Assembly: GCA_031266555.1 (NCBI GenBank)
Contig: JAISAU010000015.1
Span: 1 to 30,823 of the forward strand
Direction: 5' to 3'
Length of the DNA stretch: 30,823 nucleotides
DNA from: Campylobacteraceae bacterium
Lineage (GTDB): Bacteria > Campylobacterota > Campylobacteria > Campylobacterales > Campylobacteraceae
In this document: in pieces, positions 3,873 through 23,729 of the stretch
Position numbering within the stretch: the first letter of the stretch is position 1
Layout of the letters: each line of letters opens with the position of its first letter
Made by a program: the position numbers and the translations under genes
Notes under the pieces: model-generated
Databases searched by the model: none
Seen by the model: only the letters and a program-made list of their open reading frames with translations
Told to the model about the DNA's origin: nothing

Positions 3873-4748
3873 CTACACATAGCCGTCAACTATGAATGTT
3901 AAGCCATTTATATATGCTTTACCATCGCCTGTATTGTTACCATTTGTATATATAGTAACTCCTTGCGGCCTCGTTTCATCGCTATAGGGGATGTAAGTAA
4001 TATATATGTGTGTTATTTCTGTACCATTTATATCTACTATAGGTGGGTCAAAACTTTTTTCAGCTTCAAAATATTTACCACCAGACTTATGAACCATAGC
4101 ATCATATTGTATGTTATTTATCAAAAATACGACATTAACTGTATTGTATCCGCTCCACGTTGATACAGAAGGTGTTAATTCGTAACTAAAATGTATGCTA
4201 TCATTAATATCAACGGTATAATTTCCTAACCCGAATATATCCGTAACATTTATAGGTTTTTTGAACAATGTTATTGCGAGCCAGCATCGTCCCATCGGAT
4301 TATTTTCCGGAGCGTAACTATAATATTGCAATGAACCTCCTTCGTTTTTGCTTGTACAAGTTCGCAAAAAAGAGCTTGAAAATATTTGCTCCATCACTTG
4401 CTTGCCACCGTTTCGATTATTGTCAACGAAATCTAGAGCATGCGTTAAACCTGATTCTTCTGCAGTACCCAAAAGAACAGCCGCGTAATTGTCGTTTATG
4501 TCGTAAGGATTATCCATATCAGTTCTTATCTCAAATGCAGTATTTATATAAGCATAATCAAACATACCCCAGTCTACGTCTGTCAAGTTAGGATTTATAT
4601 CTTGCTCAAGTTTTAATATCAGCTCGTTAAGATATATTCCCTCATCATCCAAACTTACATTTTCAGTTAAGCTTCCAATAACAACTATCGCATAATCCTC
4701 AATAAGTTTCTCAAAACTCATTGTACCGTCGCAGCATAAATTTCTCAT
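3873..4748 (-). CDS. Paralog 3 of the three-member family.
   Basis: 291-aa ORF with the conserved termini and blocks described for 352-1218. Confidence 0.85.
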   Translation of the reverse strand: MRNLCCDGTMSFEKLIEDYAIVVIGSLTENVSLDDEGIYLNELILKLEQDINPNLTDVDWGMFDYAYINTAFEIRTDMDNPYDINDNYAAVLLGTAEESGLTHALDFVDNNRNGGKQVMEQIFSSSFLRTCTSKNEGGSLQYYSYAPENNPMGRCWLAITLFKKPINVTDIFGLGNYTVDINDSIHFSYELTPSVSTWSGYNTVNVVFLINNIQYDAMVHKSGGKYFEAEKSFDPPIVDINGTEITHIYITYIPYSDETRPQGVTIYTNGNNTGDGKAYINGLTFIVDGYV

Positions 4749-5234
4749 TGTCTTGTCTCCTTGATTATTTAATAAAATATTGGGTTCCGCTCGTTATAGC
4801 GGTCGCCGACACTTACCGACATCGCTCTATTTATCTTGACTTTGTTTTTTGTGACCACAATTAATTTGCAAAGTCTGACTTAACAAAGTTCCAGATAATC
4901 CGACACTCTCGTTGGCTTGCCAAGTTGTGAGTTATTGTTTGTTGTAGACATTATGTTGTTCTATCCAATCTATTCGCACCTCTGAAATTAAAATAAAATA
5001 ATTTATAATTATTTTTTAATTATCTTATTAATATCAGGGTACTCTTTAGTCTCTTAAAATACTCTTGTATTTTTTTCTTAGCTTATATGGATTAGTTACT
5101 ATTATTTGAAATTTTTCTCGTAAATGAGTGCAAAAAATTAGATTATTAAAATATAAAATGGACTATTGTTTATTTTGGATAGCGTTAACAGAATAGATAT
5201 TTTTTTGAATTTGAGGCAAATATGTTACATGTAG
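4749..5234 (-). promoter_or_regulatory. Conserved leader/promoter of paralog 3, with TTACATGTAG at 5225-5234. It is ~90 nt longer than the other two leaders.
   Basis: Shares the same blocks with the two other leaders. Confidence 0.4.
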
Positions 5235-5268
5235 TGCGATAAATAACAATGGAACGCAAAATGATTTT

Positions 5269-5982
5269 TTAAGTTTGAATTTTCAACACGCTAAAAATAT
5301 TGTCGCAAGATTTTACAATTAATTCTTTAGCATTTATAATGGTATTTTCATACTCTTTAGCAGGTTGAATGTATTCTATATCGCGCCTATATTTGCTCAT
5401 GTCAAATGTTTTTAATGCTTTATATATAGTTTTTATATCGTTTTCGTTTATCGCTTCTTGTTTAAGCAATTTATCGAGTATATTTTTATCGTTGTGAATA
5501 GCAACGGCTATATCGGCTATATCTCTTGATTTATTTTGCGAACCTCTATGTACTATTTTCTTTGCCAATATATCTTCTATACTTTCAATATAAATGTTAT
5601 ACTTGAATAACTCTTTCGATGTGTCTACCAAAGGTTTTGATATAAAATCTTGAGCTACTAAAATATCGACTTTTATGTTATCTTTTGTCATAAATCGTAC
5701 ATGATGGTTTAAATCCTCTATGTAATCGTCTGACTTGAAATATCTGCTTTCTTCGAGCCAAAATCTTGGTCTTATGCAATCAAGCACTTGAGGGTCTGTC
5801 GTAAAAATATCTACATCATAGCTTTTTCTATGTTGAAAATAGTATATGGCAAGAGCTGTACCACCTCCGAAACGCAACAGCGATAAATCCTTGTTCGGCA
5901 AAAGCTCTATGCATTCGTCCAAAAAATGATTTAGAGCGTTTATTTGTTCTTTGTATATATTTTTTATCTCACAAATTTGCAT
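5269..5982 (-). CDS. AbiEii/DUF1814-family nucleotidyltransferase, a putative type IV toxin.
   Basis: 237 aa. The N-terminal RFGGGTALAIYYF...RKSYDVDIFT block matches the AbiEii nucleotidyltransferase fold signature (GGTAL plus acidic DxD). Confidence 0.65.
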   Translation of the reverse strand: MQICEIKNIYKEQINALNHFLDECIELLPNKDLSLLRFGGGTALAIYYFQHRKSYDVDIFTTDPQVLDCIRPRFWLEESRYFKSDDYIEDLNHHVRFMTKDNIKVDILVAQDFISKPLVDTSKELFKYNIYIESIEDILAKKIVHRGSQNKSRDIADIAVAIHNDKNILDKLLKQEAINENDIKTIYKALKTFDMSKYRRDIEYIQPAKEYENTIINAKELIVKSCDNIFSVLKIQT

Positions 5983-6205
5983 ATAATACTTTGCTTATCT
6001 GTTTCATAGGTATATTGTGAATTTTTGCAAACGCTTCTATCTCTTGTGGTAAAGCTTCCTCCCTAATTGTATCAACTATGTATTGCTCAATATTATTTTT
6101 AGTTTTTCCATGCAAAAAAATATCCGCTATTTGCTTGCCCGTTAAATGTTTCTTTTTATCACCAATGGAGCAGTTAGCAGTTGCTATAAGCATTGCGTCT
6201 GTCAT
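5969..6205 (-). CDS. Small protein encoded upstream of, and overlapping, the AbiEii-like gene. It is the putative cognate antitoxin but is much shorter than a canonical AbiEi.
   Basis: 78 aa. It overlaps the downstream gene by 14 nt. A promoter sits immediately upstream. Confidence 0.5.
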   Translation of the reverse strand: MTDAMLIATANCSIGDKKKHLTGKQIADIFLHGKTKNNIEQYIVDTIREEALPQEIEAFAKIHNIPMKQISKVLYANL

Positions 6206-6225
6206 TTTAAATCCTTTAAAATAAC

Positions 6226-6255
6226 ATTGTATTCCAAAAAAATATAAAAAGTCAA
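6226..6255 (-). promoter_or_regulatory. Sigma70-like promoter for the two-gene AbiE-like operon: TTGACT-N18-TACAAT on the minus strand.
   Basis: -35 is the complement of 6250-6255 and -10 the complement of 6226-6231. An AGGA RBS lies 7 nt before the ATG at 6205. Confidence 0.4.
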
Positions 6256-6466
6256 GCCCAACACGTCAAATTCTTTTTTGTAAATTCATTAGTCAGCTAA
6301 CTTTTTATCTTAGATATTCCTAATTTACGCGCTCAGAAAATCGCACTTAGTTACATGTAGTCAAAATAAGAATCACGCTTACATGTAGTATCAATATCAT
6401 ATTAAAATCAATAAGTCGCGTTACATGTAAGAGTGTTATTCAGATATTACTTTTAAAAGTGTCAAT

Positions 6467-7756
6467 TTATTTGGTAGCTTGGCTTTTTTTATTTTCTCGT
6501 ATCGCTTTGGCTATCAATTCCAACGGATGAGAAAATACAATTTTCACATTATCTTTATCAAGCGCGTTTGAAAGCTGCATTCTGCACGCTCCGCACTCGG
6601 CGCTGAGAATTTTCGCTCCAGTTTGTTTTATCATCTCTACTTTTGGTTTTGCCGCATTTTTCGCTAATTCAAACTTTTCGCTTTGTATCGTAACGCCGCC
6701 AAATCCACAGCATTGATTTGGGTCGCTCATCTCGATAAGCTCGTAATTTTCGGACAAAAGAGCGCGCGGTTCTTTGAATATTTTCAAAACTTTTCTGGCG
6801 TGACACGGATCGTGATAAGTAACGCTTTTCTTTTCTACATATAAGGCTTTTAAGTGTTTCGCGAGGTCTGTTTTAGCGTATAGCCATTCGCTTGCCATAA
6901 AAACTTTAGAAGTTATTTTCGTCACTCTTGCCAACCATTCGGGTTGTTCTTGCATAAAACGTCCCCAATCCTCTTTTATCATAGCCGCGCATGTAGCTTC
7001 CGGTACGATAATGGCATCAACATCGTCTATAAAAGTCTCAAAATATTCAACATTTTGCTTTATCAACCTATCTACCGTTTTAAAATCTCCGGTAAAAAAA
7101 GCAGGCGCGCCGCAACAACGCTGTTTTGGCGGAATAAAAACATTGATTTTTAAAACTTTTAGTATCTCAAGCAAACTATCAGCGGTTTTCGTATAATGAT
7201 AATTTGAAAAACATCCTACAAATAGAGCGATTTTCTTAGTATCGGAACCGTTTTTTATATCGCCTTTGTGTTTTTGCAAAAAACTTCTTTTGTTTAATAG
7301 AGGAAATACTCTTTTTTTTACAAAAGGCAGAGATAAACGCGGTTTCATAGACTCTGTTTCGCGGTCTATTTTAAATAAAACAGGCAAAAACACGGAAAGA
7401 AAAGAGAAGCTAAAATCCATCACCCTTCTATGTCTCAAAAGAAAAAAATAGACTCTTTTAAACCACGCTATACCGAATTTCTCGGCTATCTTAAAGCGAA
7501 TATTTTCTATCGCCAAATCAGTAGGCAAAGAGGTCGGACAAATGCTAACGCAAGTCGTGCACAAAAAACATTTTTCAAATATATCTTTGGTATTTTTATC
7601 AAGCTCCAATTCTCCGCGTTGATACGCTCCGACAAGTTCCAAAAAACCTCTGGGACTTGTAACCTCATCGCTGTTTATCTTATGTATCGTGCAACTTGGA
7701 ACGCATTTGCCACATTTTACGCAAGCTTCGCTTGCTTTTGTAAAATCAAAATTCAT
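6467..7756 (-). CDS. Fe-S oxidoreductase of the GlcF/GlpC type: 2x[4Fe-4S] ferredoxin motifs plus two CCG cysteine-rich domains.
   Basis: 429 aa. CVKCGKCVPSC and CFLCTTCVSICP cluster motifs, CCGAPAFF and CCGFGG CCG motifs. The start overlaps the hemN stop by 4 nt. Confidence 0.75.
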   Translation of the reverse strand: MNFDFTKASEACVKCGKCVPSCTIHKINSDEVTSPRGFLELVGAYQRGELELDKNTKDIFEKCFLCTTCVSICPTSLPTDLAIENIRFKIAEKFGIAWFKRVYFFLLRHRRVMDFSFSFLSVFLPVLFKIDRETESMKPRLSLPFVKKRVFPLLNKRSFLQKHKGDIKNGSDTKKIALFVGCFSNYHYTKTADSLLEILKVLKINVFIPPKQRCCGAPAFFTGDFKTVDRLIKQNVEYFETFIDDVDAIIVPEATCAAMIKEDWGRFMQEQPEWLARVTKITSKVFMASEWLYAKTDLAKHLKALYVEKKSVTYHDPCHARKVLKIFKEPRALLSENYELIEMSDPNQCCGFGGVTIQSEKFELAKNAAKPKVEMIKQTGAKILSAECGACRMQLSNALDKDNVKIVFSHPLELIAKAIRENKKSQATK

Positions 7757-9120
7757 ACTGTTTTGCTGAAGCGGCGCAACTCTTCAGGCACTTTTCGCAA
7801 ATATGCGTCAAACGGCATACAGATATTTCGGATAAGAAACGTTCCTGTTTTGCTTACATGTAAGAAATCTTTGTCAATACTCACAAGCCCTTCGTCTATA
7901 AAAGGTTGTAAAGCTTTTACCTCGTCTTTAAAATAGCTGAAAAAATCCGCGTTAAAACGTTTTTGAAAATTTGATATATTTAGCTTACAGTTGCTCATCA
8001 TCTCCATAATCACGGCTTTTCTGATAACATCGTCGTCGCTTAGTACCAAACCTCTCATGACGGGCAGTTTTTCGTTATCTATAGCTTCTTCGTAAGAACT
8101 CATTTCTCGGAAATTTTGCGCGTAATGTCTCTCGCCCTCGCCTATGCTTGTAAGTCCTATACCTATCAAATCAGTACCGCCTTTTGTGGTATATCCTTGA
8201 AAGTTTCTATGAAGCTCTCCTTTTTCAATCGCTAAAAAAAGTTCGTCTTTAGGTTTGGCGAAGTGATCCATTCCTATCATTTTATATCCGTTCGACTCTA
8301 AAAAATCGATAGTATAACGCATTATTGAAAGTTTTTCTTTTGGACTTGGCAACGTGGTTTCATCAAATTTTCTCATAGTTTTTTTCATCCACGGCACATG
8401 TGCGTAGTTAAAAACGGCATATCTGTCTATGTCAAGTTCCAAAGATTTTTGCAAAGTGTTTTTAAAAGTATCAAGGCTTTGATACGGAAGCCCGTATATC
8501 AAATCCATATTGATAGAATTAATCCCAGCTTTTCGCGCAATGTCAACAGCGTTTTTGGTAACTTCAAAAGGTTGTACGCGATGAACCTCTTCTTGTACTT
8601 TTCCATCAAAATCCTGCGCGCCGAAACTTATACGATTAAAACCGTTATCTCTTAAAACGCTCATTTGCTCTTTTGTAAAAAATCTCGGGTCTATCTCGCA
8701 ACTTATCTCGGCGTTCTTGGCAATTTTAGGAAATGTTTCCCATATGGCTTTTATGATTTTTTCAAGTTGAGAAGCGTTAAAAAAGGTTGGTGTCCCGCCA
8801 CCAAAATGCAACTGTAAAACCTCTCTTTTTGTATCGAGGAAACGCGAAAGTATTGCAAACTCTTTTTTTAGATACTCGATATAACGCTCTTTTTTTTCCT
8901 CTTTGCTGGTATACACCACGTTACAGCCGCAAAAATAACAAGCGGATCTGCAAAAAGGCATATGCGCGTACAAAGAAAGTTTTTTGCTTTTGTCTTGATT
9001 TTTTAATATCTCTTCATAATCCTTCACGCCAAATTCATCGCTAAATTCCGGTGCGGTAGGATAACTCGTATAACGAGGCCCCGGTTTTGAATATTTTACA
9101 AATTGCTCAAAATCAATCAT
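7753..9120 (-). CDS. hemN: Oxygen-independent coproporphyrinogen III oxidase (radical SAM).
   Basis: 455 aa. The N-terminal PGPRYTSYPTA and the radical-SAM CxxxCxxC motif (CRSACYFCGC) are typical of HemN. Confidence 0.9.
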   Translation of the reverse strand: MIDFEQFVKYSKPGPRYTSYPTAPEFSDEFGVKDYEEILKNQDKSKKLSLYAHMPFCRSACYFCGCNVVYTSKEEKKERYIEYLKKEFAILSRFLDTKREVLQLHFGGGTPTFFNASQLEKIIKAIWETFPKIAKNAEISCEIDPRFFTKEQMSVLRDNGFNRISFGAQDFDGKVQEEVHRVQPFEVTKNAVDIARKAGINSINMDLIYGLPYQSLDTFKNTLQKSLELDIDRYAVFNYAHVPWMKKTMRKFDETTLPSPKEKLSIMRYTIDFLESNGYKMIGMDHFAKPKDELFLAIEKGELHRNFQGYTTKGGTDLIGIGLTSIGEGERHYAQNFREMSSYEEAIDNEKLPVMRGLVLSDDDVIRKAVIMEMMSNCKLNISNFQKRFNADFFSYFKDEVKALQPFIDEGLVSIDKDFLHVSKTGTFLIRNICMPFDAYLRKVPEELRRFSKTV

Positions 9121-9129
9121 TAAACTCTC

Positions 9130-9633
9130 TTAATCCATCAAATTATTCGGCACGATGTTGCTATAGATCCCTTTTAAATCGACAAATAAAGACGGGTGCG
9201 CTTTTTTGATATTTCCAATGAGTTTTTCAATATCTATTTTAACAGCTTGCGTATTATCGCTTTTTTTAGCCATACGCCTTATTTCGTCCATAGCCACGAC
9301 CCAAACGTCCCCAAAATCTACCGGCAAATGTTTCCAAATAGTCTTTTCTAATTTTAATTCAAAATTTTCCTGCCCTAAAGTCTTTAAATTTTCAATCATT
9401 CTTGTAAGCGTGTCCAAAGATACCATCGTATGTATTTTTTTCTTCTCGTCTATGACAAACCAAGGTTCTTTAGCTTCCCAACTGCCGCTTTTAAGATTTA
9501 AAGACTTGACGTCGGGATTATCCGTGAGTTCTACTTCAAGTATGGTCTTGTCGTCTTTATCGTTAATACCTATATTTTTAGAGATGGTATTAATCTTGTC
9601 GTATACCGTTATCTCATTTTTACTTTCGTCCAT
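9130..9633 (-). CDS. Hypothetical protein lying between argF and hemN.
   Basis: 167-aa ORF with no recognisable motif. My recollection is that C. jejuni has a small hypothetical gene in the same position. Confidence 0.6.
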   Translation of the reverse strand: MDESKNEITVYDKINTISKNIGINDKDDKTILEVELTDNPDVKSLNLKSGSWEAKEPWFVIDEKKKIHTMVSLDTLTRMIENLKTLGQENFELKLEKTIWKHLPVDFGDVWVVAMDEIRRMAKKSDNTQAVKIDIEKLIGNIKKAHPSLFVDLKGIYSNIVPNNLMD

Positions 9634-9651
9634 ATTCTAATCCGTTTTTTA

Positions 9652-10578
9652 TTAATTTTTACGTTGTCTATCTAACCAAACCATAACCGCTTTTTGTACA
9701 TGTAGTCTATTTTCAGCTTCGTCAAATATCTCATTGGCGTGCGCTTCAAAAACCTCATCGCTTACCTCGTATCCTCTGTACGCAGGCAAACAATGCAAAA
9801 ATATCGCGTCTTTTTTCGCTAAAGCCATCATTTTTTTATCTATCATAAAACCTTCAAAATATTTTATTCTTTTCTCTTTCTCGTCTTCTTGTCCCATAGA
9901 TACCCATGTATCGGTTGTAACAACGCCGGCGTTTTTAACGGCGTCTTTTGGGTTTTCGCATATAGATATTTTAGAGCCGCTCTTTTTCGCGAACTCATAC
10001 GCGTTTTTAAGAACGTCTTGATCTGCTTCATACCCTTTTGGCGTTGATATACGAAGCTCAAATCCGATTTTTGAAGCGAGCATAAGCCACGAATTAGCAA
10101 TATTGTTGCCATCGCCTACATACGCCGCTACCAAATTTTTGTCTTTGCCGTATTCGCAAATAGTCATATAATCCGCTAAAAGCTGCATAGGGTGATAAGT
10201 GTCGCTAAGTCCGCTGATAAGCGGAACGCTTGAGTATTTCGCGAATTCTTCGAGCCTATCTTGTCCAAAAGTTCTTATCATTACCATATCTACCATACGG
10301 CTTAAAACTCTCGCCGTATCTTTTAAAGGTTCTCCGCGTCCGAGCTGTATATCGTCTGTTGATAAAAAAAGTCCCTTTCCTCCAAGCTGGTGAATTCCCA
10401 CTTCAAAACTAACTCTAGTTCTTGTGGAACTTTTTTCAAATATCATTCCCAAAACTTTATCTTTTAAATACGGGTTGAATTTACCCTTTTTCGCTTTTCT
10501 TTTTATCTTTACAGCCAAAGATAAAATCTCTAAAATCTCATCTTTACTGAAATCTTTCAATGTTAGAAAGTGTCTCAT
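9652..10578 (-). CDS. argF: Ornithine carbamoyltransferase.
   Basis: 308 aa. Carbamoyl-phosphate site STRTR and ornithine site HCLPA are present. Confidence 0.9.
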
Positions 10579-11825: not shown

Positions 11826-14800
11826 ATGGGAATTACAAAAATGAGTTTAAACGAGCAAAATTTGCAAAATCAATCTCAGTTATTACACATTGGAATTGAC
11901 GTAGGCTCAACTACAGTTAAATTAGTAGTGCTTGATTCCTCCCAAAATTTGCTCCATAGCATATACACAAGACATCACTCTGAGGTTCGCAAGTGTATCA
12001 TTAAATGTATCTTAGATCTAAAAAATTGTCTTTTTTATTCCCCTTTAAGCAAAGCAACCATAACAATAGCAGGAAGCGGCGGAATGGATATCGCGCTTTT
12101 GACCGATATTCCATTTGTCCAAGAAGTTATCGCGTGCGCTAAAGCCGTTGAAAATTTTATACCGCAAACCGATGTTTGCATAGAACTTGGCGGAGAAGAC
12201 GCGAAAATCACATTTTTCACAAACGGTGTGGAACAACGAATGAACGGTACATGTGCCGGCGGTACGGGCGCTTTTATAGATCAAATGGCAATGCTTTTAA
12301 AAACAGACGCCGGCGGCTTAAACGAATTAGCGAAGAATGCGAAAAATATCTATCCTATAGCCGCAAGGTGCGGCGTTTTTGCCAAAACGGACGTACAGCC
12401 TTTATTAAACGAGGGAGTTAATAAAGGAGATATCGCTCTTTCAATATTTCAAGCGGTCGCTAATCAAACTATAAGCGGACTCGCGTGCGGCAGAAAAATA
12501 AAAGGAAACGTCGTATTCTTAGGCGGTCCGTTAAATTTTTTAAGCGAATTGAAAAATAGATTTATTGATATTTTGGAGCTTAAAGACGAAAATATCGTAA
12601 AGCCCAATCACAGCGAACTTTTTGTAGCGCTGGGAGCGGCTCTTTTTAATGATAAAACATTAACCCTTCAAGAGATTGTAGACCTTTTTGAAAATCTAAC
12701 CTCAAACACCACAAGTTCAATAAATACGTTAAGAGCGCTTTTTTTAGATGATAAAGAGAGACAAGATTTTGAAGATAGACACAATAAAGCGAATATCAAA
12801 AAAATTGATTTGAAAGATTATAAAGGAGACGCGTTTTTAGGATTTGATTGCGGTTCTACCACGACAAAAGCCGTACTTTTAAGCCGCGATAATGAAATGT
12901 TGTACGAATTTTACGGAAGCAATGAGGGCGAGCCTTTAAAAGTTGTCAAAAACATTTTAAGCGACATTTACGAAAAACTTCCTTCACATGTAAGGATAGC
13001 CTTCTCTTGCGTAACCGGATACGGCGAAGCGCTCACAAAAGAAGCTTACAAAATAGATACGTCCGAAGTTGAGACGATAGCGCATTATAAAGCCGCAAGT
13101 TTTTTTATGAAAGACGTTGATTGTATTGTGGATATCGGCGGACAAGATATGAAATACGTTCGTATCAAAAACGGCACAATTGACACTATTTTGTTAAACG
13201 AAGCTTGTTCGTCCGGATGCGGCTCGTTTATAGAGACTTTCGCGCATTCTGTAAATATGCAAGTAAACGAATTTGGCAAAGCGGCGCTTGATTCAAAACG
13301 TCCTTGCGATTTAGGTTCGCGATGTACTGTTTTTATGAATTCAAGTGTAAAGCAAGCTCAAAAAGAAGGTTTAAGCATAGGAGATATATCGGCGGGACTT
13401 TCATACGCCGTCATTAAAAACGCTCTAATTAAAGTAATAAAACTTAAAAATCCGGAAGATTTGGGAGAACATATCATCGTTCAAGGCGGAACTTTTTATA
13501 ACGATTCTGTTTTAAGGGCGTTTGAACTTATCTCAAAAAGAGACGTCGTAAGACCAAAAATAGCGGGTCTTATGGGCGCTTTCGGAGCCGCGTTGCTCGC
13601 GAAAGAAAGATATGACGGAGTAACCGATACGACATTGCTTCAAACAAAAACTTTACAAGATTTTACAATAAAGCATTCCATGTTAAGATGTCACGCTTGC
13701 TCAAATTCTTGCGCCATGACGTTAAATCGTTTCGGAGACGGCAGGAAATTCATAACCGGCAACAGATGTGAAAAGGGTGCCGGAAAAACAAGCTCTAACT
13801 TCTCCTTGCCAAACTTATATGATTATAAATACAAAAGACTCTTTTCTTATATGCCAAATACTAACTCGAAATTTGGTAAAGTCGGTATTCCACGCGCTTT
13901 AAACATGTATGAAAATTACCCTTTTTGGTTTACGTTTTTAACAAATATAGGTTTTGAGGTTATACTCTCAGACGAATCTTCAAAAACTCTACTTGAAAAA
14001 GGGCTTGATACGCTGCCTTCGGATTCTATATGTTATCCCGCCAAACTGGTACACGGACATATCGTGAACCTCATAGAAAAGGGGGTAAAAACTATATTTT
14101 ATCCTTGCGTAACTTACGAGCAGCAAGAATTTCACGACACGCATGAACATTATAATTGCCCTGTCGTTATCTCATATCCCGAACAGATTAGAAATAATAT
14201 AGATTTGGTGAAAGAAAAAAATATAAATTACATTCAACCGTTTTTGTCTTTGGAAAATAAAGAAAAACTTTATTCAAGGCTGGTTGATGTTTTTAAATCT
14301 TTTGGCATACCCTCAGCGCTTATCAAAGCGTCTTTGAATATCGCTTGGGAAGAGCAGTTAAACTTCAAAAGGGATTTGCAAAGAAAAGGCGAAGAGACCG
14401 TTGAGTTTTTAAAAAGCACAAATACCCACGGCATTATCTTGTCCGGTCGACCGTATCACCTTGACCCTGAAATTCATCATGGAATTCCGCAAGTTATAAC
14501 TTCGCTTGGAATGGCGGTTTTAACGGAAGATAGCATATCTCACATGGGAGGATTGGAAAATCCCTTGAGGGTGGTAGACCAATGGGCTTATCACGCGAGA
14601 TTATATCGCGCCGCCTCTTTTGCGGGCAAATGCGACTTTCTTGACCTAATACAGTTAAACTCTTTTGGGTGCGGAATTGATTCCGTTACGACAGATCAAG
14701 TGCAAGAGTTGCTTGAACAACGAAACAAAATTTACACTTGTATTAAAATAGACGAAGTAAATAACCTCGGAGCGGTAAAGATTAGAATTCGCTCTTTGAA

Positions 14801-16145
14801 AGCGGCTCTGTTGGAACGCGAGAAAAATATTGATTTTACAAAAATGAGTTTTAGCGCAGAACCTAAATACAAAAAGGTCGCGTTCACAAAGCAGATGAAA
14901 GCAGAAGGATACACCATCATCGCTCCGCAGATGTCTCCTATACATTTTCAGTTTTTACAAACCTCTTTTATTACATGCGGATACAATTTTAAATTGTTAG
15001 AACATGTGGGAGAAAACGCTATAGACGACGGATTGAAGTACGTAAACAACGACGCTTGTTATCCGTCTATCATTGTCATAGGACAAGTCATAAACGAGTT
15101 AAAAACAGGTGATCACGATCTTGATAAAACTGCCGTTATGATGGTTCAAACAGGAGGCGGATGCAGAGCCACAAATTATATAGCGTATCTTAGAAAAGCT
15201 TTAGCGGACGCCGGATTTTCTCAAATTCCCGTTATATCTTTTAATATGCTTGGAATGGAACGAAATGACGGATTTGGCTTATCACTTCCTTTGCTAAACC
15301 GTCTGATGATGGGTTGCGTTTACGGCGACGTTTTAATGCAAACGCTTTTTAGAACGAGACCTTACGAGAGCGTAAAAGGGTCGGCTAATGAGCTGTTTTA
15401 CAAATGGTCTGAGCGATGTAAAGAAGCGTTAAAAGACGCTAAGTTTAAAACATTTAACGCGAACATTGATGGGATTATTCGCGATTTTGACAATCTTCCT
15501 CTGCTTGATATAAAAAAGCCTCGCGTAGGACTTGTGGGCGAAATACTGGTTAAATATCATCCTACCGCCAATAATGACATAGTTGATATCATAGAAAAAG
15601 AAGGTTGCGAAGCGGTTATGCCCGGACTTATGGAATTTTTACTCTATTGCGCTTACGGTTATGGTTTCAGCCACAAATATTTATCAAAAAGCGCTTTCGC
15701 CGCGCTTGCAGGAAAAGCCGCTATTCAGGCTATGGAATTTTATAAACGACAAGCCAGGAAATCTTTAAAGCAGAGCAAACGCTTTATGGAACCAGCCAAA
15801 ATAGACGAGCTTGCGTTTGGAGCGGCGCCTATTTTATCGCGTGGAAATCAAACGGGAGAAGGATGGTTTCTAACCGCTGAGATGGTGCATTTGATACACG
15901 ATGGAGTGCCGAACATAGTTTGTATGCAACCGTTCGCTTGCTTGCCTAATCATATAACAGGCAAAGGCACGTTAAAAGCTTTAAAACAGCACTATCCGCA
16001 AGCAAATATCACGGCAATAGATTATGATCCCGGATCTTCCGCGGTCAATCAATTAAACCGTATTAAACTAATGCTAAGCGTCGCGTTTAAAAATTTAAAT
16101 AAACAAACAGACGACATAGACGAATTCAGCGAGATAACGTTATAA
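11826..16145 (+). CDS. Large fusion protein: two tandem BadF/BadG/BcrA/BcrD-type activase ATPase domains (CoA-substrate-specific enzyme activase) plus a C-terminal 2-hydroxyacyl-CoA dehydratase (HgdB/HgdC-like) domain.
   Basis: 1439 aa. Actin-fold phosphate-1 motifs GIDVGSTTVK (aa ~22) and GFDCGSTTTK (aa ~335), DIGGQD-type motifs, and a cysteine-rich C-terminal ~800 aa. A TATAAT sits at ~11797. The exact start is uncertain (11826 or 11847). Confidence 0.75.
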   Translation: MGITKMSLNEQNLQNQSQLLHIGIDVGSTTVKLVVLDSSQNLLHSIYTRHHSEVRKCIIKCILDLKNCLFYSPLSKATITIAGSGGMDIALLTDIPFVQEVIACAKAVENFIPQTDVCIELGGEDAKITFFTNGVEQRMNGTCAGGTGAFIDQMAMLLKTDAGGLNELAKNAKNIYPIAARCGVFAKTDVQPLLNEGVNKGDIALSIFQAVANQTISGLACGRKIKGNVVFLGGPLNFLSELKNRFIDILELKDENIVKPNHSELFVALGAALFNDKTLTLQEIVDLFENLTSNTTSSINTLRALFLDDKERQDFEDRHNKANIKKIDLKDYKGDAFLGFDCGSTTTKAVLLSRDNEMLYEFYGSNEGEPLKVVKNILSDIYEKLPSHVRIAFSCVTGYGEALTKEAYKIDTSEVETIAHYKAASFFMKDVDCIVDIGGQDMKYVRIKNGTIDTILLNEACSSGCGSFIETFAHSVNMQVNEFGKAALDSKRPCDLGSRCTVFMNSSVKQAQKEGLSIGDISAGLSYAVIKNALIKVIKLKNPEDLGEHIIVQGGTFYNDSVLRAFELISKRDVVRPKIAGLMGAFGAALLAKERYDGVTDTTLLQTKTLQDFTIKHSMLRCHACSNSCAMTLNRFGDGRKFITGNRCEKGAGKTSSNFSLPNLYDYKYKRLFSYMPNTNSKFGKVGIPRALNMYENYPFWFTFLTNIGFEVILSDESSKTLLEKGLDTLPSDSICYPAKLVHGHIVNLIEKGVKTIFYPCVTYEQQEFHDTHEHYNCPVVISYPEQIRNNIDLVKEKNINYIQPFLSLENKEKLYSRLVDVFKSFGIPSALIKASLNIAWEEQLNFKRDLQRKGEETVEFLKSTNTHGIILSGRPYHLDPEIHHGIPQVITSLGMAVLTEDSISHMGGLENPLRVVDQWAYHARLYRAASFAGKCDFLDLIQLNSFGCGIDSVTTDQVQELLEQRNKIYTCIKIDEVNNLGAVKIRIRSLKAALLEREKNIDFTKMSFSAEPKYKKVAFTKQMKAEGYTIIAPQMSPIHFQFLQTSFITCGYNFKLLEHVGENAIDDGLKYVNNDACYPSIIVIGQVINELKTGDHDLDKTAVMMVQTGGGCRATNYIAYLRKALADAGFSQIPVISFNMLGMERNDGFGLSLPLLNRLMMGCVYGDVLMQTLFRTRPYESVKGSANELFYKWSERCKEALKDAKFKTFNANIDGIIRDFDNLPLLDIKKPRVGLVGEILVKYHPTANNDIVDIIEKEGCEAVMPGLMEFLLYCAYGYGFSHKYLSKSAFAALAGKAAIQAMEFYKRQARKSLKQSKRFMEPAKIDELAFGAAPILSRGNQTGEGWFLTAEMVHLIHDGVPNIVCMQPFACLPNHITGKGTLKALKQHYPQANITAIDYDPGSSAVNQLNRIKLMLSVAFKNLNKQTDDIDEFSEITL

Positions 16146-18781: not shown

Positions 18782-19613
18782 AACTATTTTTTTATTAACT
18801 GCTTTAACGTTGTTGTTTGTTTTCATCGGAGGTTATATAGGTGGACAAAATGGAATGTTAATAGCGTTTGGCATAGCTGTGGCTATGAACTTTTTTAGCT
18901 ATTTTTATTCGGACAAACTTGTGCTAAAACATTACCGCGCGGTAGAAGTTGGCAAACAAAACGCAAGAGGATTTCATGAAATAGTAGAAAGATTGGCGCG
19001 AAAAGCTAATCTTCCTATGCCTAAAGTTTATATTATTCCAGAATCCGTTCCAAACGCTTTTGCAACAGGCAGAAACCCAAAAAATGCGGCAGTTGCGGCA
19101 ACAGAAGGACTTTTGAATCTGCTAACACCTCAAGAGATTGAAGGCGTAATGGCGCATGAACTCTCACATGTAAGACATTACGATATTCTGATAGGTTCTG
19201 TCGCGGCGACTATCGCAGGAGCTATTGCCATTATAGCCAATATTATGCATTACGGTGGAGCGTTTAATGGTAGCAGAAATCGCCAAAATGCGCTTGTTAT
19301 GATAGCTATAGCTATTGTCTTGCCGCTTGCCGCTACCGTTATTCAAATGACAATAAGCCGAAATCGCGAATATATGGCTGACGAGGGAGCGGCTAAAATC
19401 ACAAAACATCCCGAATACCTTCAAAGCGCGCTTTCAAAGCTTGACGCTTACGCAAGAGGCAGGGTTATGCAACAAGCTTCGCAAGAAAGTGCTCATATGT
19501 TTATCATCAATCCGTTTGCAGGTAAAAAGGTGTCGTTTAGAGAGCTTTTTTCAACTCACCCCAGCATAGAAAATAGAATAGCAAGGCTTGAAGAGCTTAA
19601 AAAAATATTATGA
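18768..19613 (+). CDS. htpX: Zinc metalloprotease HtpX (M48).
   Basis: 281 aa. HELSHV zincin motif, N-terminal TM helices and downstream glutamate. GTG start with an AAGGAG RBS. Confidence 0.85.
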   Translation: MEIFKTIFLLTALTLLFVFIGGYIGGQNGMLIAFGIAVAMNFFSYFYSDKLVLKHYRAVEVGKQNARGFHEIVERLARKANLPMPKVYIIPESVPNAFATGRNPKNAAVAATEGLLNLLTPQEIEGVMAHELSHVRHYDILIGSVAATIAGAIAIIANIMHYGGAFNGSRNRQNALVMIAIAIVLPLAATVIQMTISRNREYMADEGAAKITKHPEYLQSALSKLDAYARGRVMQQASQESAHMFIINPFAGKKVSFRELFSTHPSIENRIARLEELKKIL

Positions 19614-19626
19614 TTTTTAGCTTCTT

Positions 19627-20010
19627 TTAGCTATTTTTACAATCTTTTACAAAAATTTTTATTTTTGTTTTAACACAATCTATATTTTCATATGGAGTAT
19701 TTTGAAGTACAAAATTATCTACAACATCACTTATGGTAATTTTTAAAGAAATGAACTCTTTTTGATGTTTTTTCTTTAAAAATGACATATCTATAAATTC
19801 TAAAGTGGTTAATATTTCTTCTCTTTTTAGAGGTCTACGCTTTTTGTCAGTTGACTTTAGATCTTCAAGCTTCGTAACAATTTCAGCAATAGTATGTATT
19901 ACGTTTTTTATATTTGATTTAGCTGTCTTGCGTTGACTATAAAGGTGATATGCTGTTGGTATTATAACTCCATAAATGAAGCTCGCAACATCTATGCCCA
20001 TAATGGTCAT
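19627..20010 (-). CDS. Small hypothetical protein with an N-terminal transmembrane segment. It is the last gene of the AT-rich three-gene island.
   Basis: 127 aa. GIDVASFIYGVIIPTAY is hydrophobic. The 4-nt overlap with the upstream gene suggests translational coupling. Confidence 0.55.
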   Translation of the reverse strand: MTIMGIDVASFIYGVIIPTAYHLYSQRKTAKSNIKNVIHTIAEIVTKLEDLKSTDKKRRPLKREEILTTLEFIDMSFLKKKHQKEFISLKITISDVVDNFVLQNTPYENIDCVKTKIKIFVKDCKNS

Positions 20011-20345
20011 TTTTTGCCTTCAATTTCATGTAAAACATATTCCATCATTTTTTTTTCAAAAATTTTACCTTTTTCAGTATCGTTTTTTACTTTTATAATT
20101 TTTTGAAATTTTTCTATACCATACAAAGCAGCAATTTGACCAAATGCTTCTGATAAAAAAGATGGACCGAATGATAAAAGAACATCGTCAACATTTAATT
20201 CTATCGGCATATTCTTGTCAAAATATTGTTTTAAAACGGTTTCTCTAAACTCTTCTCCAGAAAATTCGCCAATTTCTTTAAAACGTGGTCCAGGATAAGG
20301 CGTAAATTTCTCAGCAAAATTATATTTTTCTATAATATTAGACAT
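20007..20345 (-). CDS. STAS-like small protein of the DUF4325 type (putative partner-switching antagonist).
   Basis: 112 aa. SGEEFRE...ELNVDDVLLSFGPSFLSEAFG resembles the STAS/anti-sigma-antagonist core and my recollection of the DUF4325 consensus. Confidence 0.5.
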   Translation of the reverse strand: MSNIIEKYNFAEKFTPYPGPRFKEIGEFSGEEFRETVLKQYFDKNMPIELNVDDVLLSFGPSFLSEAFGQIAALYGIEKFQKIIKVKNDTEKGKIFEKKMMEYVLHEIEGKK

Positions 20346-20358
20346 GTTTTCTCCTTAA

Positions 20359-21528
20359 CTATCTAATTTTCATTTTCCAACATATTAAAAAGCCATCAAT
20401 AAACAATGGCATTATCTTTGTTTCTTCTGTTTCTTGTTCATCATTGAACTTAAAATGATATTTGCCATTCCCCGACATAACAATCATTTCGCAACTATAT
20501 CCACACTTCTGCGCGAATTCTTTAAATTTTTTAAATCCATATCCTCTTATTCTATCTCGTTTACCTTTATATTTAGGTAATTCATCATTAACAAGCATCT
20601 TTATTATATCACTATCCGACTTAGCTTTATTAGCGATTTCTCTGAAAAAACTTCTAATGGTCTCATTAGAGTTATACTCTAGAGTTTTTCTTAATCCAAC
20701 TCCATAATCTCTAAAAGCAAACTCCAATGTATTCTCTATGGTATCATAATGACCACATAGCCACCACTTATTTTTCATTTTTAGCGGGATGTCTTCTATG
20801 TACGCATGTTCGCATGTATTGGCCATTGCCTCTGTAATAGCATCATCAAAATAATTTTGTATTTGCAAAGACAGCATAAAACCGATCTTTGAGTTTATAA
20901 ATTTCCTAATCTCTACAATATCTTCGCCCAAGTGTTTATTGTTAGATTTTATTTTTAAAAAGTAATCATTTTTAACACTTTGTGATACTGAATATGGTTT
21001 ACTTATATTCCAATACTCCCAATATCCAGATTCAAGTAAAACGTAACGTACTTTATCCAATGTTTTATTTATACCATATTTTTCATTGTATTTTAAAATG
21101 CTCTCGTCATCAATTTTTAATTTTAACTTAATTGAATTGCGCAATATATCTATTTTTGATACCAGCCACAACAAACCGTCTATAGAAATAGATTTAAGAT
21201 GCTTATGATTTATAATTATAGATTTTTGTGTAGATTTGCAATATCTTTCTATTTTTTTATTAAAAATAATTAAACTACTCTCATCATTTACAAAAAAATT
21301 TATTTTTTGTGGAATTTCTATAATTCCGATTTCTAGTTTTTTATTTATATCTTTATTTCCACATTTTTTTCTCCCTTCATATCTTTTTAAAAATTTAAAT
21401 AATTGTGGTCTAATTAATCCTTTGCAATTAGGTTCTTTACTTAATAGCTTCTTCCATTTTTTCCATTTTTTTCTCTTAATATATCTTTTAATTTTATGTT
21501 GTGTTAGAAATTTTTCTCGTATGGTCAC
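20359..21528 (-). CDS. GHKL-family (HATPase_c) ATPase with an unusual, highly basic N-terminal region.
   Basis: 389 aa. N-box ITEAMANTCEHAY, G1 RDYGVGL, G2 RGYGFKKF and G3-like MSGNGKY in the C-terminal third. The N-terminus KRYIKRKKWKKWKK is extremely basic. Confidence 0.6.
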   Translation of the reverse strand: MTIREKFLTQHKIKRYIKRKKWKKWKKLLSKEPNCKGLIRPQLFKFLKRYEGRKKCGNKDINKKLEIGIIEIPQKINFFVNDESSLIIFNKKIERYCKSTQKSIIINHKHLKSISIDGLLWLVSKIDILRNSIKLKLKIDDESILKYNEKYGINKTLDKVRYVLLESGYWEYWNISKPYSVSQSVKNDYFLKIKSNNKHLGEDIVEIRKFINSKIGFMLSLQIQNYFDDAITEAMANTCEHAYIEDIPLKMKNKWWLCGHYDTIENTLEFAFRDYGVGLRKTLEYNSNETIRSFFREIANKAKSDSDIIKMLVNDELPKYKGKRDRIRGYGFKKFKEFAQKCGYSCEMIVMSGNGKYHFKFNDEQETEETKIMPLFIDGFLICWKMKIR

Positions 21529-21615
21529 ATCAGAACCTTTTTAAAGTATCAAACAAAAAAATATTCAGACAAATTTAAGAAAATTTATCCGGACTTCCAA
21601 TCTGCTTTTATTTTT

Positions 21616-23187
21616 CTACACTTTTTTATCAGTATTTTTTTGCTTCTCTTCACTTTTATTCTTGCTATTTTCAACAGTTACAGAACCCAAAAATTCAGGT
21701 AAATCAAGACCTGCTTGTTTAGCTATGTCATGCAATGGCGGAAGAGTTTTAATCATATTTTTCATAAAATTAGCGGTAGAGCTTTTTTCGCCGTTCGCGT
21801 TATCCCAAACAGTAATCTTATCAATCTTAATGTTTTTGATAGCCTCTGTTTGCATTTTGACAATCTCTTCAAGCTTCTCTACCAAAAGCAATGTTGTAGC
21901 GCTTTTCGCGTCACTATTAGCGGCTTTAATCAACGTCTGATAACCAAGCGCTTTAGCGTCAAGCACTTTTTTAATACCTTCGGCTTCAGCGGATTTTACA
22001 AGCAAAATAGCGTCTGCTTCGCCTTGCGCGAGGCGACGTTGCTGTTCAGCGTTTGCGGCGGCGTCAATCTCAATTTTTCGCTTTTCTATCTCACGAGGCA
22101 CAATCTCTTCCGCTTCAAGACGACGCTGTTCTGCAAAAGCTTTGGCTTTTTGTATCTCGGCTTCCGCTTCTTGTTGCGCCACTTCTCCGCGTTTCGCGGC
22201 TTGTGCTTCACGTTCAAAAAGTGTAGCGTTCGACATGGCTATCTCGGCTTTTGAAGTATTTTCGCCCTCAACGGCTCTAGCGTTAAAATCAGCTATTTGT
22301 ATTCTCTGCTCTTTGTCGTACTCCGCCACTTGCACTTGTTGCTCTTTGCTAAGCTCGGCGACTCTTACCAATTGTTCTTTATCGTATTGGGCTATTTGTA
22401 CCTGCTGTTCTTTGTTGTATTCGGCGACTTTTACTTGCTGCTCTTTATTATATTCAGCTACTCTTACTTGTTCGTCTTTGGCAAATTGCGCAACTTGTAT
22501 ATGCTGCTCTTTTCTCGCTTCAGCCTCGCCTATAGCGCCTTTTTTATCTTGCTCCGCCACATCTATTTTGGCTTGGTTGATAGCCGTTAAAGCCGCTTTT
22601 TTACCAATACTCTCTATGTATCCGGATTCATCCGTTATATCGGTGACATTTACATTTATTAGGCAAAGTCCTATTTTGTCAAGTTCTGTGCCGATATTTT
22701 TTCTTATCGCGTCCAAAAAACGCTCTCTGTCTTGATTGATTTGTTCAATCGTTAACGAAGCCACGGTCAAACGCAACTGTCCGATAATAATCTCAGTCGC
22801 CATAGACTCAATATCTTTTTGCCCAAGTCCCAAAAGCCTGACAGCCGCTGAATTCATGCTATCGCTTTCCGTTGCTATAGCCACCGTAAAAGTACTTGGC
22901 ACATTAACGCGAATATTTTGCAATGAAAGAGCGCCTTTTAGCGGAATATTAATCGTAAGCGGAGTTAAATCAAGATATTTATAATCTTGTATCAAAGGCC
23001 ATACGAAAGCTCCGCCGCCATGCAGACAATGAGCTGATTTGCCGCCCCCTACTTTTCCGTATACGACTAAAATTTGATTGGAGGCGCAACGTTTATAGCG
23101 ACTAGCCAAAAACATAATCAAAACAAAAATAAAGATTACGAAAAACAGTATCGCAATCAACGCAAAATTCAAATCCTCTATATACAT
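21616..23187 (-). CDS. Flotillin/SPFH (band 7) family protein, YqiK-like.
   Basis: 523 aa. N-terminal TM helix, an SPFH domain and a long EA/Q-rich coiled-coil segment with 11-aa repeats. It is adjacent to an NfeD/YqiJ-like gene. Confidence 0.8.
   Translation of the reverse strand: MYIEDLNFALIAILFFVIFIFVLIMFLASRYKRCASNQILVVYGKVGGGKSAHCLHGGGAFVWPLIQDYKYLDLTPLTINIPLKGALSLQNIRVNVPSTFTVAIATESDSMNSAAVRLLGLGQKDIESMATEIIIGQLRLTVASLTIEQINQDRERFLDAIRKNIGTELDKIGLCLINVNVTDITDESGYIESIGKKAALTAINQAKIDVAEQDKKGAIGEAEARKEQHIQVAQFAKDEQVRVAEYNKEQQVKVAEYNKEQQVQIAQYDKEQLVRVAELSKEQQVQVAEYDKEQRIQIADFNARAVEGENTSKAEIAMSNATLFEREAQAAKRGEVAQQEAEAEIQKAKAFAEQRRLEAEEIVPREIEKRKIEIDAAANAEQQRRLAQGEADAILLVKSAEAEGIKKVLDAKALGYQTLIKAANSDAKSATTLLLVEKLEEIVKMQTEAIKNIKIDKITVWDNANGEKSSTANFMKNMIKTLPPLHDIAKQAGLDLPEFLGSVTVENSKNKSEEKQKNTDKKV
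22290..22500 (-). repeat. About six in-frame tandem 33-bp repeats, encoding 11-aa units of the form VAEYNKEQQVK, inside the flotillin gene.
   Basis: AQFAKDEQVRV / AEYNKEQQVKV / AEYNKEQQVQI / AQYDKEQLVRV / AELSKEQQVQV / AEYDKEQRIQI. The DNA period of 33 is visible in the sequence. Confidence 0.8.
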
Positions 23188-23189
23188 AT

Positions 23190-23729
23190 TTAGCTCCCCT
23201 TCTTCTCAAATAGACACACAGCAACAGTATGCGAATCTATTATATGCGTAATTACCACTCTCTCAAATGAATTTATACTTATCTCATCTTCAGTTATTGC
23301 GTCAAATTCATGCTTTGTGCCGTTAATAGATAATATAACTCTGCCAACTCCTCCAAGCGGTATTCTCACATAAACCTCAGCATTTTGTCCAACCGACTCT
23401 TTGATATCAAACACCACTCCGCTGCTTTTTAATTTCATAGCTAATTTAAAAAGCCAAGCTGTGATAAACATCGCTATAAAACCGCAAATTATAGCAATGA
23501 CGACCGAAGTTAGCAGTGATAGCTTAAATTGATAACCGCAAGCAAGTCCAACCCAACCAAACATCGCTATAAAACTTGTAATAGAATTTAAAGACAGAAG
23601 TTTAAAAGCGCCTTCCGTGGCGTCCAACTCATCGGTATTATCGCCGTCAAATCCGCCCACAATGGACACAGCTACTCTTAAGATAAAAAACACGGAACCC
23701 GCTACAGCGGCAATCCAAAAAATATGCAT
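23190..23729 (-). CDS. NfeD-family / YqiJ-like membrane protein, the flotillin partner.
   Basis: 179 aa. Several N-terminal TM helices and a C-terminal beta-rich (OB-like) domain. Operon arrangement with the flotillin gene (stop/start 3 nt apart). Confidence 0.65.
   Translation of the reverse strand: MHIFWIAAVAGSVFFILRVAVSIVGGFDGDNTDELDATEGAFKLLSLNSITSFIAMFGWVGLACGYQFKLSLLTSVVIAIICGFIAMFITAWLFKLAMKLKSSGVVFDIKESVGQNAEVYVRIPLGGVGRVILSINGTKHEFDAITEDEISINSFERVVITHIIDSHTVAVCLFEKKGS

Follow-up and report, generated by a model that had tools for sequence, protein, structure and literature searches.

A horizontally acquired kinase/STAS/membrane-protein gene trio in a Campylobacteraceae bacterium, predicted to be a relative of the VapKSC and CapKS modules

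What does a compact, AT-rich trio of genes do where it sits, with a membrane protease gene on one side and a flotillin operon on the other, and does it belong to any known system? The question is raised by positions 19614-21615 of contig JAISAU010000015.1 from a Campylobacteraceae bacterium (GenBank assembly GCA_031266555.1; its 30,823 nucleotides (nt) are the whole stretch analysed and are called the window here). A first-pass annotation, made from the sequence alone, had seen in this cassette a GHKL ATPase, a STAS-like partner and a small membrane protein, and had suggested a horizontally acquired module of signalling or defence type. Our comparisons lead to a predicted relative of two recently described kinase modules, VapKSC and CapKS, with a membrane protein in the place of the effector.

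Results

Gene products and their closest known counterparts

All three open reading frames (ORFs) were found on the minus strand exactly where the first-pass annotation had placed them and encode proteins of 389, 112 and 127 amino acids (aa). The genes, and the parts of their products on which the argument turns, are as follows:

20359..21528, minus strand: gene A ('K'), 389-aa predicted polybasic-tail/STAS/GHKL serine-kinase-type protein, GTG start
21349..21528, minus strand: N-terminal extension of A (aa 1-60), polybasic, KRYIKRKKWKKWKK; predicted to form two long helices
20959..21333, minus strand: aa ~66-190 of A, STAS-like domain with the motif LKSISIDGLLWL
20362..20931, minus strand: aa ~200-389 of A, GHKL kinase domain of SpoIIAB/RsbW type; N-box E233/N237, G1 D274xG276xG278, G2 G329xG331
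20007..20345, minus strand: gene B ('S'), 112 aa, STAS-like (DUF4325); C-terminal helix FxKKMMEYV conserved
20160..20162, minus strand: Ser62 codon of B (TCT), within GPS62FLSEAFG; predicted phospho-acceptor
19627..20010, minus strand: gene C ('X'), 127 aa, predicted N-terminal transmembrane helix and charged four-helix-bundle tail

The spacer between A and B measures 13 nt and contains AAGGAG, the start of C overlaps the stop of B (ATGA), and the three genes are, as far as the sequence can tell, translationally coupled.

The first-pass annotation recognised no named system. This no longer holds, since the closely analogous VapKSC and CapKS have been described (Chambers et al., EMBO J 2026, PMC13373217). 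CapK is a kinase with helix-turn-helix (HTH), STAS and GHKL domains that is turned on by single-stranded DNA (ssDNA) and phosphorylates Ser54 of CapS, a 182-aa STAS-winged-HTH repressor; phosphorylation de-represses immune operons (CBASS/Bub/Thoeris), and CapKS is always located upstream of the genes under its control. VapK, a STAS-GHKL kinase, is proposed to phosphorylate the 116-aa STAS antitoxin VapS and thereby to release the PIN toxin VapC; VapKSC conferred ~2-log protection against phage Bas42. For ssDNA activation both kinases use an aromatic residue, W68 in CapK and F54 in VapK, the latter being the proposed ssDNA-stacking residue (all PMC13373217). We took the sequences of VapK, VapS, CapK and CapS from the supplementary files of that publication.

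On its own, the gene A product gave a sub-threshold Pfam match only (HATPase_c_2, E=0.12). Its placement among the GHKL proteins is nevertheless solid and draws on its relatives, on searches with profiles and on the fold. Among 54 distant relatives, 25 match HATPase_c_2 and 19 match HATPase_c, and a family profile searched against the Protein Data Bank (PDB) found RsbW (E=2.3e-4) and SpoIIAB as best matches. The motifs quoted in the first-pass annotation are present and invariant in 21 close homologues (N-box E233/N237/E240/H241, G1 D274-Y-G-V-G-L, G2 R328-G-Y-G-F-K), and all three are largely invariant across the 54 distant relatives. Structural matches of A (scores in brackets) comprised SpoIIAB 1l0o (11.5), the RsbW domain of Rv1364c (10.3) and RsbW 6m36_A (10.2), and, on the STAS side, the STAS domains 3mgl (9.2) and 3oir (7.8) and RsbV 6m36_B (6.9). 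From these fold matches to SpoIIAB/RsbW and to STAS/RsbV structures we conclude that A consists of a polybasic tail, a STAS domain and an anti-sigma-type GHKL serine-kinase domain. Judged by sequence and model, A is a serine kinase of the SpoIIAB/RsbW type whose ATP site is intact and which is joined to its own STAS domain in one protein. The ~240-aa N-terminal region thus does open with a basic stretch as first described; it is not, however, a single basic domain, the STAS part having been overlooked. An alignment of the STAS region of A with the B family by hhalign gave E=0.013 and a probability of 3%, and no HTH family of Pfam matched A.

In the AlphaFold2 (AF2) model, helices span residues 10-31 and 42-59 of the tail. 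Of 54 family members, 50 have a net charge of at least +8 over the first 45 aa. Some of these are rich in Arg and come from genomes of 58-61% GC, and because the charge is kept in these members the tail of A is not an artefact of AT-richness. Many distant relatives (for example P0050, P0062, P0075 and P0100) begin with MK(K/R)LS-x3-K-x-(W/Y/F) ahead of the polybasic stretch, a motif that A in the window lacks.

The second protein, B, had been likened to DUF4325 and STAS-type proteins, and DUF4325 was its only Pfam match (E=1.5e-12, 47.5 bits versus a gathering cut-off of 23). A serine occupies the Ser62 column, within a conserved loop-helix motif, in 16 of 16 B proteins from kinase/STAS/membrane-protein trios. 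This residue aligns with the 'SSF' phosphosite S54 of CapS, while S48 of VapS falls one column earlier, and the C-terminal helix of B is conserved as well. Neither a winged HTH nor any other DNA-binding domain was detected in the 112 aa of B by Pfam, and a phmmer search of B against the PDB gave no match. By sequence, B is a STAS protein of the DUF4325 family that resembles VapS and keeps a Ser where CapS is phosphorylated. B also matches positions 340-434 of the 441-aa profile phrog_5816, a phage family in which DUF4325 is the C-terminal part of a longer protein; this suggests that fusion proteins with a C-terminal DUF4325, possibly of kinase-STAS type, exist in phages.

How close are these proteins to the described modules? 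A profile of the divergent A family (A2) matched residues 20-285 of the 302 residues of VapK, covering both domains (36 bits, E=2e-13, single comparison), and matched CapK at 32 bits. VapS itself is a DUF4325 protein (E=2.7e-17), which agrees with earlier work noting one PIN clade coupled to DUF4325 genes (PMC5499597). Since the A profile matches VapK full length and VapS belongs to DUF4325, VapKSC and CapKS are the closest known systems; the link between B and VapS rests on the shared Pfam family and on profile searches.

With VapKSC the cassette shares a three-gene operon of identical order, a kinase with STAS and SpoIIAB-like GHKL domains that is homologous to the A family over the full length, a second gene for a ~110-116-aa DUF4325 protein with a conserved Ser starting helix 2 and a C-terminal helix that matters for function, and frequent proximity to defence genes. 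It differs in its third gene, predicted to encode a single-pass membrane four-helix bundle where VapC is a PIN nuclease, in the ~60-aa polybasic N-terminal extension of A that is absent from VapK, and in Ser113 of A where VapK has F54, and the sequence similarity is remote. With CapKS it has in common a homologous kinase/STAS-substrate pair, the phospho-Ser in register (S54 with S62) and the association with immune loci. Unlike the STAS-winged-HTH protein CapS, B carries no winged HTH and is therefore probably not a repressor; A has its polybasic helical tail where CapK has the HTH, W68 is not conserved, and no multi-gene immune operon follows, only gene C and then the convergent htpX. Because C is not a PIN protein, B has no winged HTH and the ssDNA-stacking aromatic is missing, the cassette is a member of neither system. 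On these comparisons it is a previously undescribed membrane-effector relative of the VapKSC/CapKS kinase modules within a large uncharacterised clade, and a full-text literature search found no description of a membrane-protein variant of the kinase/STAS module. One literature mention of a HATPase, from DefensePredictor, was set aside, as it concerns a HATPase-REC system unrelated to the cassette.

The fold of A is that of the anti-sigma kinases of SpoIIAB-SpoIIAA and RsbW-RsbV, with N-box, G1 and G2. The cassette differs from these pairs in that kinase and STAS domain are fused in A, that the presumed output is a membrane protein, and that the trio genes are mobile and not part of a core regulon. 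No Pfam family of sigma factors or PP2C phosphatases occurs in the flanks within the window, at any of the 18 trio loci described below or in the retrieved neighbourhoods, which bears out the initial remark that no sigma factor accompanies the module.

The third protein is a fast-evolving membrane protein

A single hydrophobic segment at the N-terminus of C peaks at aa 1-19, and the basic residues QRKTAK come next. Its AF2 model, predicted from a 7-row alignment, is all-helical (H7-51, H56-71, H80-103, H108-126; pLDDT 74). Segment and model are in line with the single-pass membrane protein originally suggested, and we predict that C is anchored N-terminally and carries a four-helix bundle. C belongs to no family in Pfam, NCBIfam, PADLOC or PHROGs and specifically has no PIN domain; likewise, neither a PIN domain nor any other Pfam match was found in 10 other third-gene products. 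A profile search for homologues of C returned 7 proteins only, mostly the query's own rows. Within the same loci, C is only 16-24% identical, compared to 42-55% for A and 50-64% for B, making it the fastest evolving of the three. Homology of the proteobacterial/GC-rich third-gene products to the Campylobacterota C proteins was not statistically detectable. Five third-gene products (L017, L020, L021, L022 and L024) share an E-Y-W / D-Y-F motif ~30 residues past the transmembrane helix.

The trio is conserved across phyla, phages and plasmids

The close A family is small and patchy. It counts 27 proteins of 42-52% identity from Sulfurospirillum, Arcobacter/Aliarcobacter and Sulfurimonas, and only 3 loci were found in 185,579 GTDB species representatives, one of them disrupted. 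At a Sulfurimonas locus (L007, metagenome-assembled genome (MAG) contig CBDETZ010000005.1, positions 7470-8159 and 9450-9770), the kinase homologue is truncated and split by an insert of ~1.3 kb, and the locus appears to be a decaying copy of the cassette. A scan of metagenome contigs yielded 6 short loci, and a scan of IMG/VR with the close A family found none.

An exhaustive profile search, in contrast, revealed a superfamily matched over the full length, with 1505 clusters (50% identity) at E<=1e-3 and 516 at E<=1e-10, and A matches the phage family phrog_3364 (E=1.4e-30). As the narrower profile, A1, reached only 5.8 bits on VapK, the 1505-cluster family appears to be a clade distinct from VapK. 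Run on the 54 distant relatives of A, PADLOC gave three isolated weak matches only (E 0.004-0.006).

Kinase, DUF4325 gene and small transmembrane-protein gene followed each other in this order at 18 of 18 evaluable loci (three more loci were cut by contig ends, and one was a pseudogene), covering Campylobacterota, Leptospira, Alpha- and Gammaproteobacteria, and phages. The third gene of every trio encodes a protein of 127-191 aa whose N-terminal transmembrane helix is followed by basic residues and then by a charged tail of helices. The genomic contexts were as follows:

L001 (Arcobacter MAG) and L003: prophages, immediately 3' of an S24/cI-like repressor
L012: 3' of an XRE repressor
L022: immunity region of the isolated Marinobacter phage AS1 (AS1_41/40/39), after the CI-like AS1_42 and divergent from the Cro/CI gene AS1_43
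L014: Helicobacter prophage
L015: Leptospira interrogans plasmid, adjoining MNT/HepT
L023: Acinetobacter indicus plasmid, adjoining RelE/ParE
L024: Novosphingobium plasmid, adjoining IS110; third ORF unannotated
L018/L019: immediately 3' of KwaA-KwaB (Kiwa) and a type I restriction-modification (R-M) S subunit; the contig ends within the third gene
L017: adjoining HipA, GmrSD_N and an integrase
L002: adjoining a reverse transcriptase and RloB
L004: adjoining type IV secretion system genes
L016, L020 and L021: other loci, in organisms of 48-61% GC

The defence or abortive-infection character put forward at first is supported by context only, namely by immunity regions of prophages, by Kiwa, type I R-M, GmrSD and HipA, and by toxin-antitoxin genes on plasmids. 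A look at the neighbourhoods of homologues, which the first-pass annotation had recommended as a check, thus led to phage repressors, plasmid toxin-antitoxin genes and Kiwa.

The cassette was acquired horizontally

At 26.9%, the GC content of 19614-21615 is well below the 36.0% of the remaining window, and the cassette is about the lowest in GC among 577 sliding 2-kb windows, the minimum beginning at 19601. The GC content at third codon positions is 0.15-0.23 in the cassette genes versus 0.30-0.37 in neighbouring genes. On one side lie ribA, gidB and htpX (Peptidase_M48), on the other a Band_7/flotillin gene, an NfeD-like gene, alr and a TraB/GumN gene; htpX and flotillin had been named correctly from the start. 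The boundaries of the cassette are:

19614..19626, no strand: left junction of the insertion, 13 bp separating the convergent stops of htpX and C; synteny with L027 ends at 19618
21529..21615, minus strand: spacer from the flotillin stop to the start of A, 87 bp, A/T-rich; candidate own promoter

A scan with consensus promoters found no site in 21529-21615, with a region total of 14 versus 12.5 expected by chance, and the promoter/terminator scan of the cassette region as a whole gave a result not above chance.

The two closest relatives retrieved, MAGs of related Campylobacteraceae with the locus on long contigs, encode HtpX homologues that are 92% and 88% identical and keep both the ribA-gidB-htpX flank and the flank with a 149-aa gene product, CmeU and alr. 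None of A, B, C and the flotillin gene is present in the slot in these relatives, where other small genes reside instead, and the 3' part of the NfeD-like gene is missing from them along with the flotillin gene. Nucleotide identity with one of them (L027) is 84.7% up to window position 19618, 5 bases beyond the htpX stop, and resumes only at 23433, indicating that the site is a variable slot. This slot, 19619-23432 in the window, corresponds to 6847-8130 of L025 and 6852-9655 of L027, and the three related MAGs hold three different cargos in it. No convincing att-like direct repeats flank the cassette. The trio, with a GC content of 27% compared to 41% for the adjacent flotillin gene, is a separate, recent acquisition, as its GC lies far below that of its neighbour. 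Composition, absence from the relatives and the synteny break all support the horizontal acquisition that the first-pass annotation had read from base composition.

Other features of the window

At 5269-5982 on the minus strand, an AbiEii-type nucleotidyltransferase toxin is predicted (Pfam E=4.5e-12) within a low-GC patch (5001-5500, GC 0.24). By sequence it is a second defence/toxin-antitoxin element, and a short HTH-like candidate ORF just upstream of it (5983-6466) may encode the AbiEii antitoxin. Three tandem paralogues of ~288 aa on the minus strand (352-1218, 1900-2760 and 3873-4748) are 61-66% identical, start with MRNLCC[DN]GTMSFEKLIE and have no Pfam match. The plus-strand gene at 11826-16145 encodes a 1439-aa BcrAD/BadFG-type CoA-enzyme activase fusion (DUF2229 and two ATPase domains), is kept in L025 and L027, and looks like ordinary metabolism.

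Discussion

What, then, might the cassette do? We consider it somewhat probable that it is a mobile kinase/STAS/effector module of the CapK/VapK lineage, most likely a phage-triggered, toxin-antitoxin-like system for abortive infection or superinfection exclusion whose effector acts at the membrane. The conflict-type contexts of its homologues speak for this: repressor-adjacent positions in phages and prophages, Kiwa with R-M, GmrSD_N with HipA and an integrase, and plasmid MNT/HepT and RelE/ParE. So do the published mechanism of VapKSC/CapKS, the constant gene order at 18 of 18 loci and the recent arrival of the trio in this genome. By analogy with VapKSC, B would bind C in the resting cell and keep it inactive through its STAS face and the conserved C-terminal helix. 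A cue associated with infection, either nucleic acid or a membrane event sensed through the polybasic tail, would then switch on A, which would phosphorylate B at Ser62 so that B releases C. Freed C might oligomerise or otherwise perturb the inner membrane, and growth would stop or the incoming phage would be blocked. As the kinase has no ssDNA-sensing aromatic and carries a conserved polybasic tail instead, its trigger probably differs from ssDNA, and the sequence suggests a different nucleic-acid-binding mode or association with the membrane.

Phage copies invite a comparison with rexA-rexB of phage lambda, accessory genes after the cI-type repressor that are expressed in lysogens and have a presumed exclusion function. 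RexA, however, is no kinase, RexB is polytopic, and no kinship in sequence or fold emerged, none having been sought. The likeness is one of position and function only: phage trios directly follow a cI-type repressor and include a membrane protein, and a prophage copy beside a cI-like repressor would be expressed in the lysogen, much like rexAB.

More tentatively, and with less confidence than in the mechanism as such, we propose that the trio represents a large unnamed immune family that crosses phyla and occurs in phages, plasmids and islands (~500-1500 clusters at 50% identity, with a PHROG of its own). In this family, a polybasic-tailed STAS-GHKL kinase may sense a cue other than ssDNA, such as incoming nucleic acid or perturbation of the inner membrane, phosphorylate a DUF4325 'antitoxin' and unleash a fast-diversifying helical-bundle effector at the membrane.

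Several observations weigh against a phage-triggered membrane toxin. In the window, the cassette lies outside any recognisable prophage or defence island, and the nearest defence-type gene is AbiEii, ~14 kb away. PADLOC 2.0 recognises none of A, B and C, and NCBIfam is blank for them as well. By pairwise BLASTP, B and VapS are not significantly similar. By hmmalign, Ser113 of A takes the position of VapK F54/CapK W68, where the Leptospira copy has Ile and the Helicobacter copy has Arg, and this column is variable among the 21 close homologues. C has no detectable similarity to any toxin, and Foldseek matched its model to generic four-helix bundles at E>0.1; moreover, the transmembrane segment of C in the window is the weakest in the family (Kyte-Doolittle 1.57). 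Cross-clade hidden Markov model (HMM) tests of the third-gene products stayed at the level of shuffled controls. Because homology of the third genes is not demonstrable across clades, it is from their architecture and position only that we assume a common effector function, and all our functional statements on the cassette are inferences.

Among the alternatives, classical partner switching survives best, though we regard it as unlikely. Here A would itself hold the output or be an effector that phosphorylates host or phage proteins, B would titrate A as antagonist or pseudo-substrate, and C would be a membrane anchor or sensor (for example at the phage DNA entry site) and not a toxin. In structure, A matches SpoIIAB and RsbW best, and these anti-sigma factors bind directly to their targets; the polybasic tail could bring the kinase to the membrane. 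The missing toxin signature of C would fit as well, as would its much faster evolution (16-24% identity), which might be expected of a sensor in an arms race. However, in the only characterised relatives the output is bound by the STAS protein (CapS binds DNA, VapS binds the toxin), the kinase merely releasing it, and with C as a mere anchor the cassette is left without an obvious effector.

We give still less credence to an addiction module, in which the same circuit would serve post-segregational killing or the maintenance of prophages and plasmids rather than phage defence. Its architecture is indeed toxin-antitoxin-like, and copies are located on plasmids beside MNT/HepT and RelE/ParE and inside prophages. 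Yet some chromosomal copies directly follow Kiwa and R-M or adjoin GmrSD, the copy in the window is chromosomal, stands alone and is on no obvious mobile element, simple addiction needs no kinase sensor, and the related VapKSC protects against phage.

A transcriptional switch of the CapKS type, with B as repressor, A relieving repression and C as the regulated 'downstream operon', appears very improbable to us. The A2 match to CapK (32 bits), the alignment of Ser62 with S54 and the invariable position of CapKS ahead of its controlled genes all point in this direction, but B, at 112 aa, lacks the winged HTH or any other DNA-binding domain that the 182-aa CapS carries, A lacks the HTH of CapK, and the ATGA coupling of B and C leaves no room for a promoter between them. 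A housekeeping membrane-stress module working with htpX and flotillin/NfeD, which the position between a membrane protease gene and a same-strand flotillin operon and the membrane protein C might suggest, is effectively refuted by context and by presence and absence: 0 of the 17 other loci have htpX or flotillin beside the trio, the composition is foreign, and close relatives with the same htpX flank have no trio.

If the reading as a phage-triggered module with a membrane effector holds, what would it mean? CapKS and VapKSC showed that an anti-sigma-type kinase and its STAS substrate can gate immune outputs, of which two, a repressor and a PIN toxin, are known so far. The cassette indicates a third branch, apparently far larger, whose output is a membrane protein and whose trigger is probably different. 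Should the more tentative reading as an immune family across phyla hold as well, kinase/STAS partner switching would be a general, effector-swappable trigger of prokaryotic immunity, and temperate phages of many phyla would carry a rexAB-like exclusion function expressed in lysogens. Orthologues amenable to experiment exist, since members of the family are found in the immunity region of the temperate Marinobacter phage AS1, on plasmids of Acinetobacter and Leptospira, and adjacent to Kiwa. If confirmed, it would give annotation pipelines a new defence family that PADLOC 2.0 misses, and would provide a clean system in which to ask how phosphorylation of a STAS protein controls a membrane effector.

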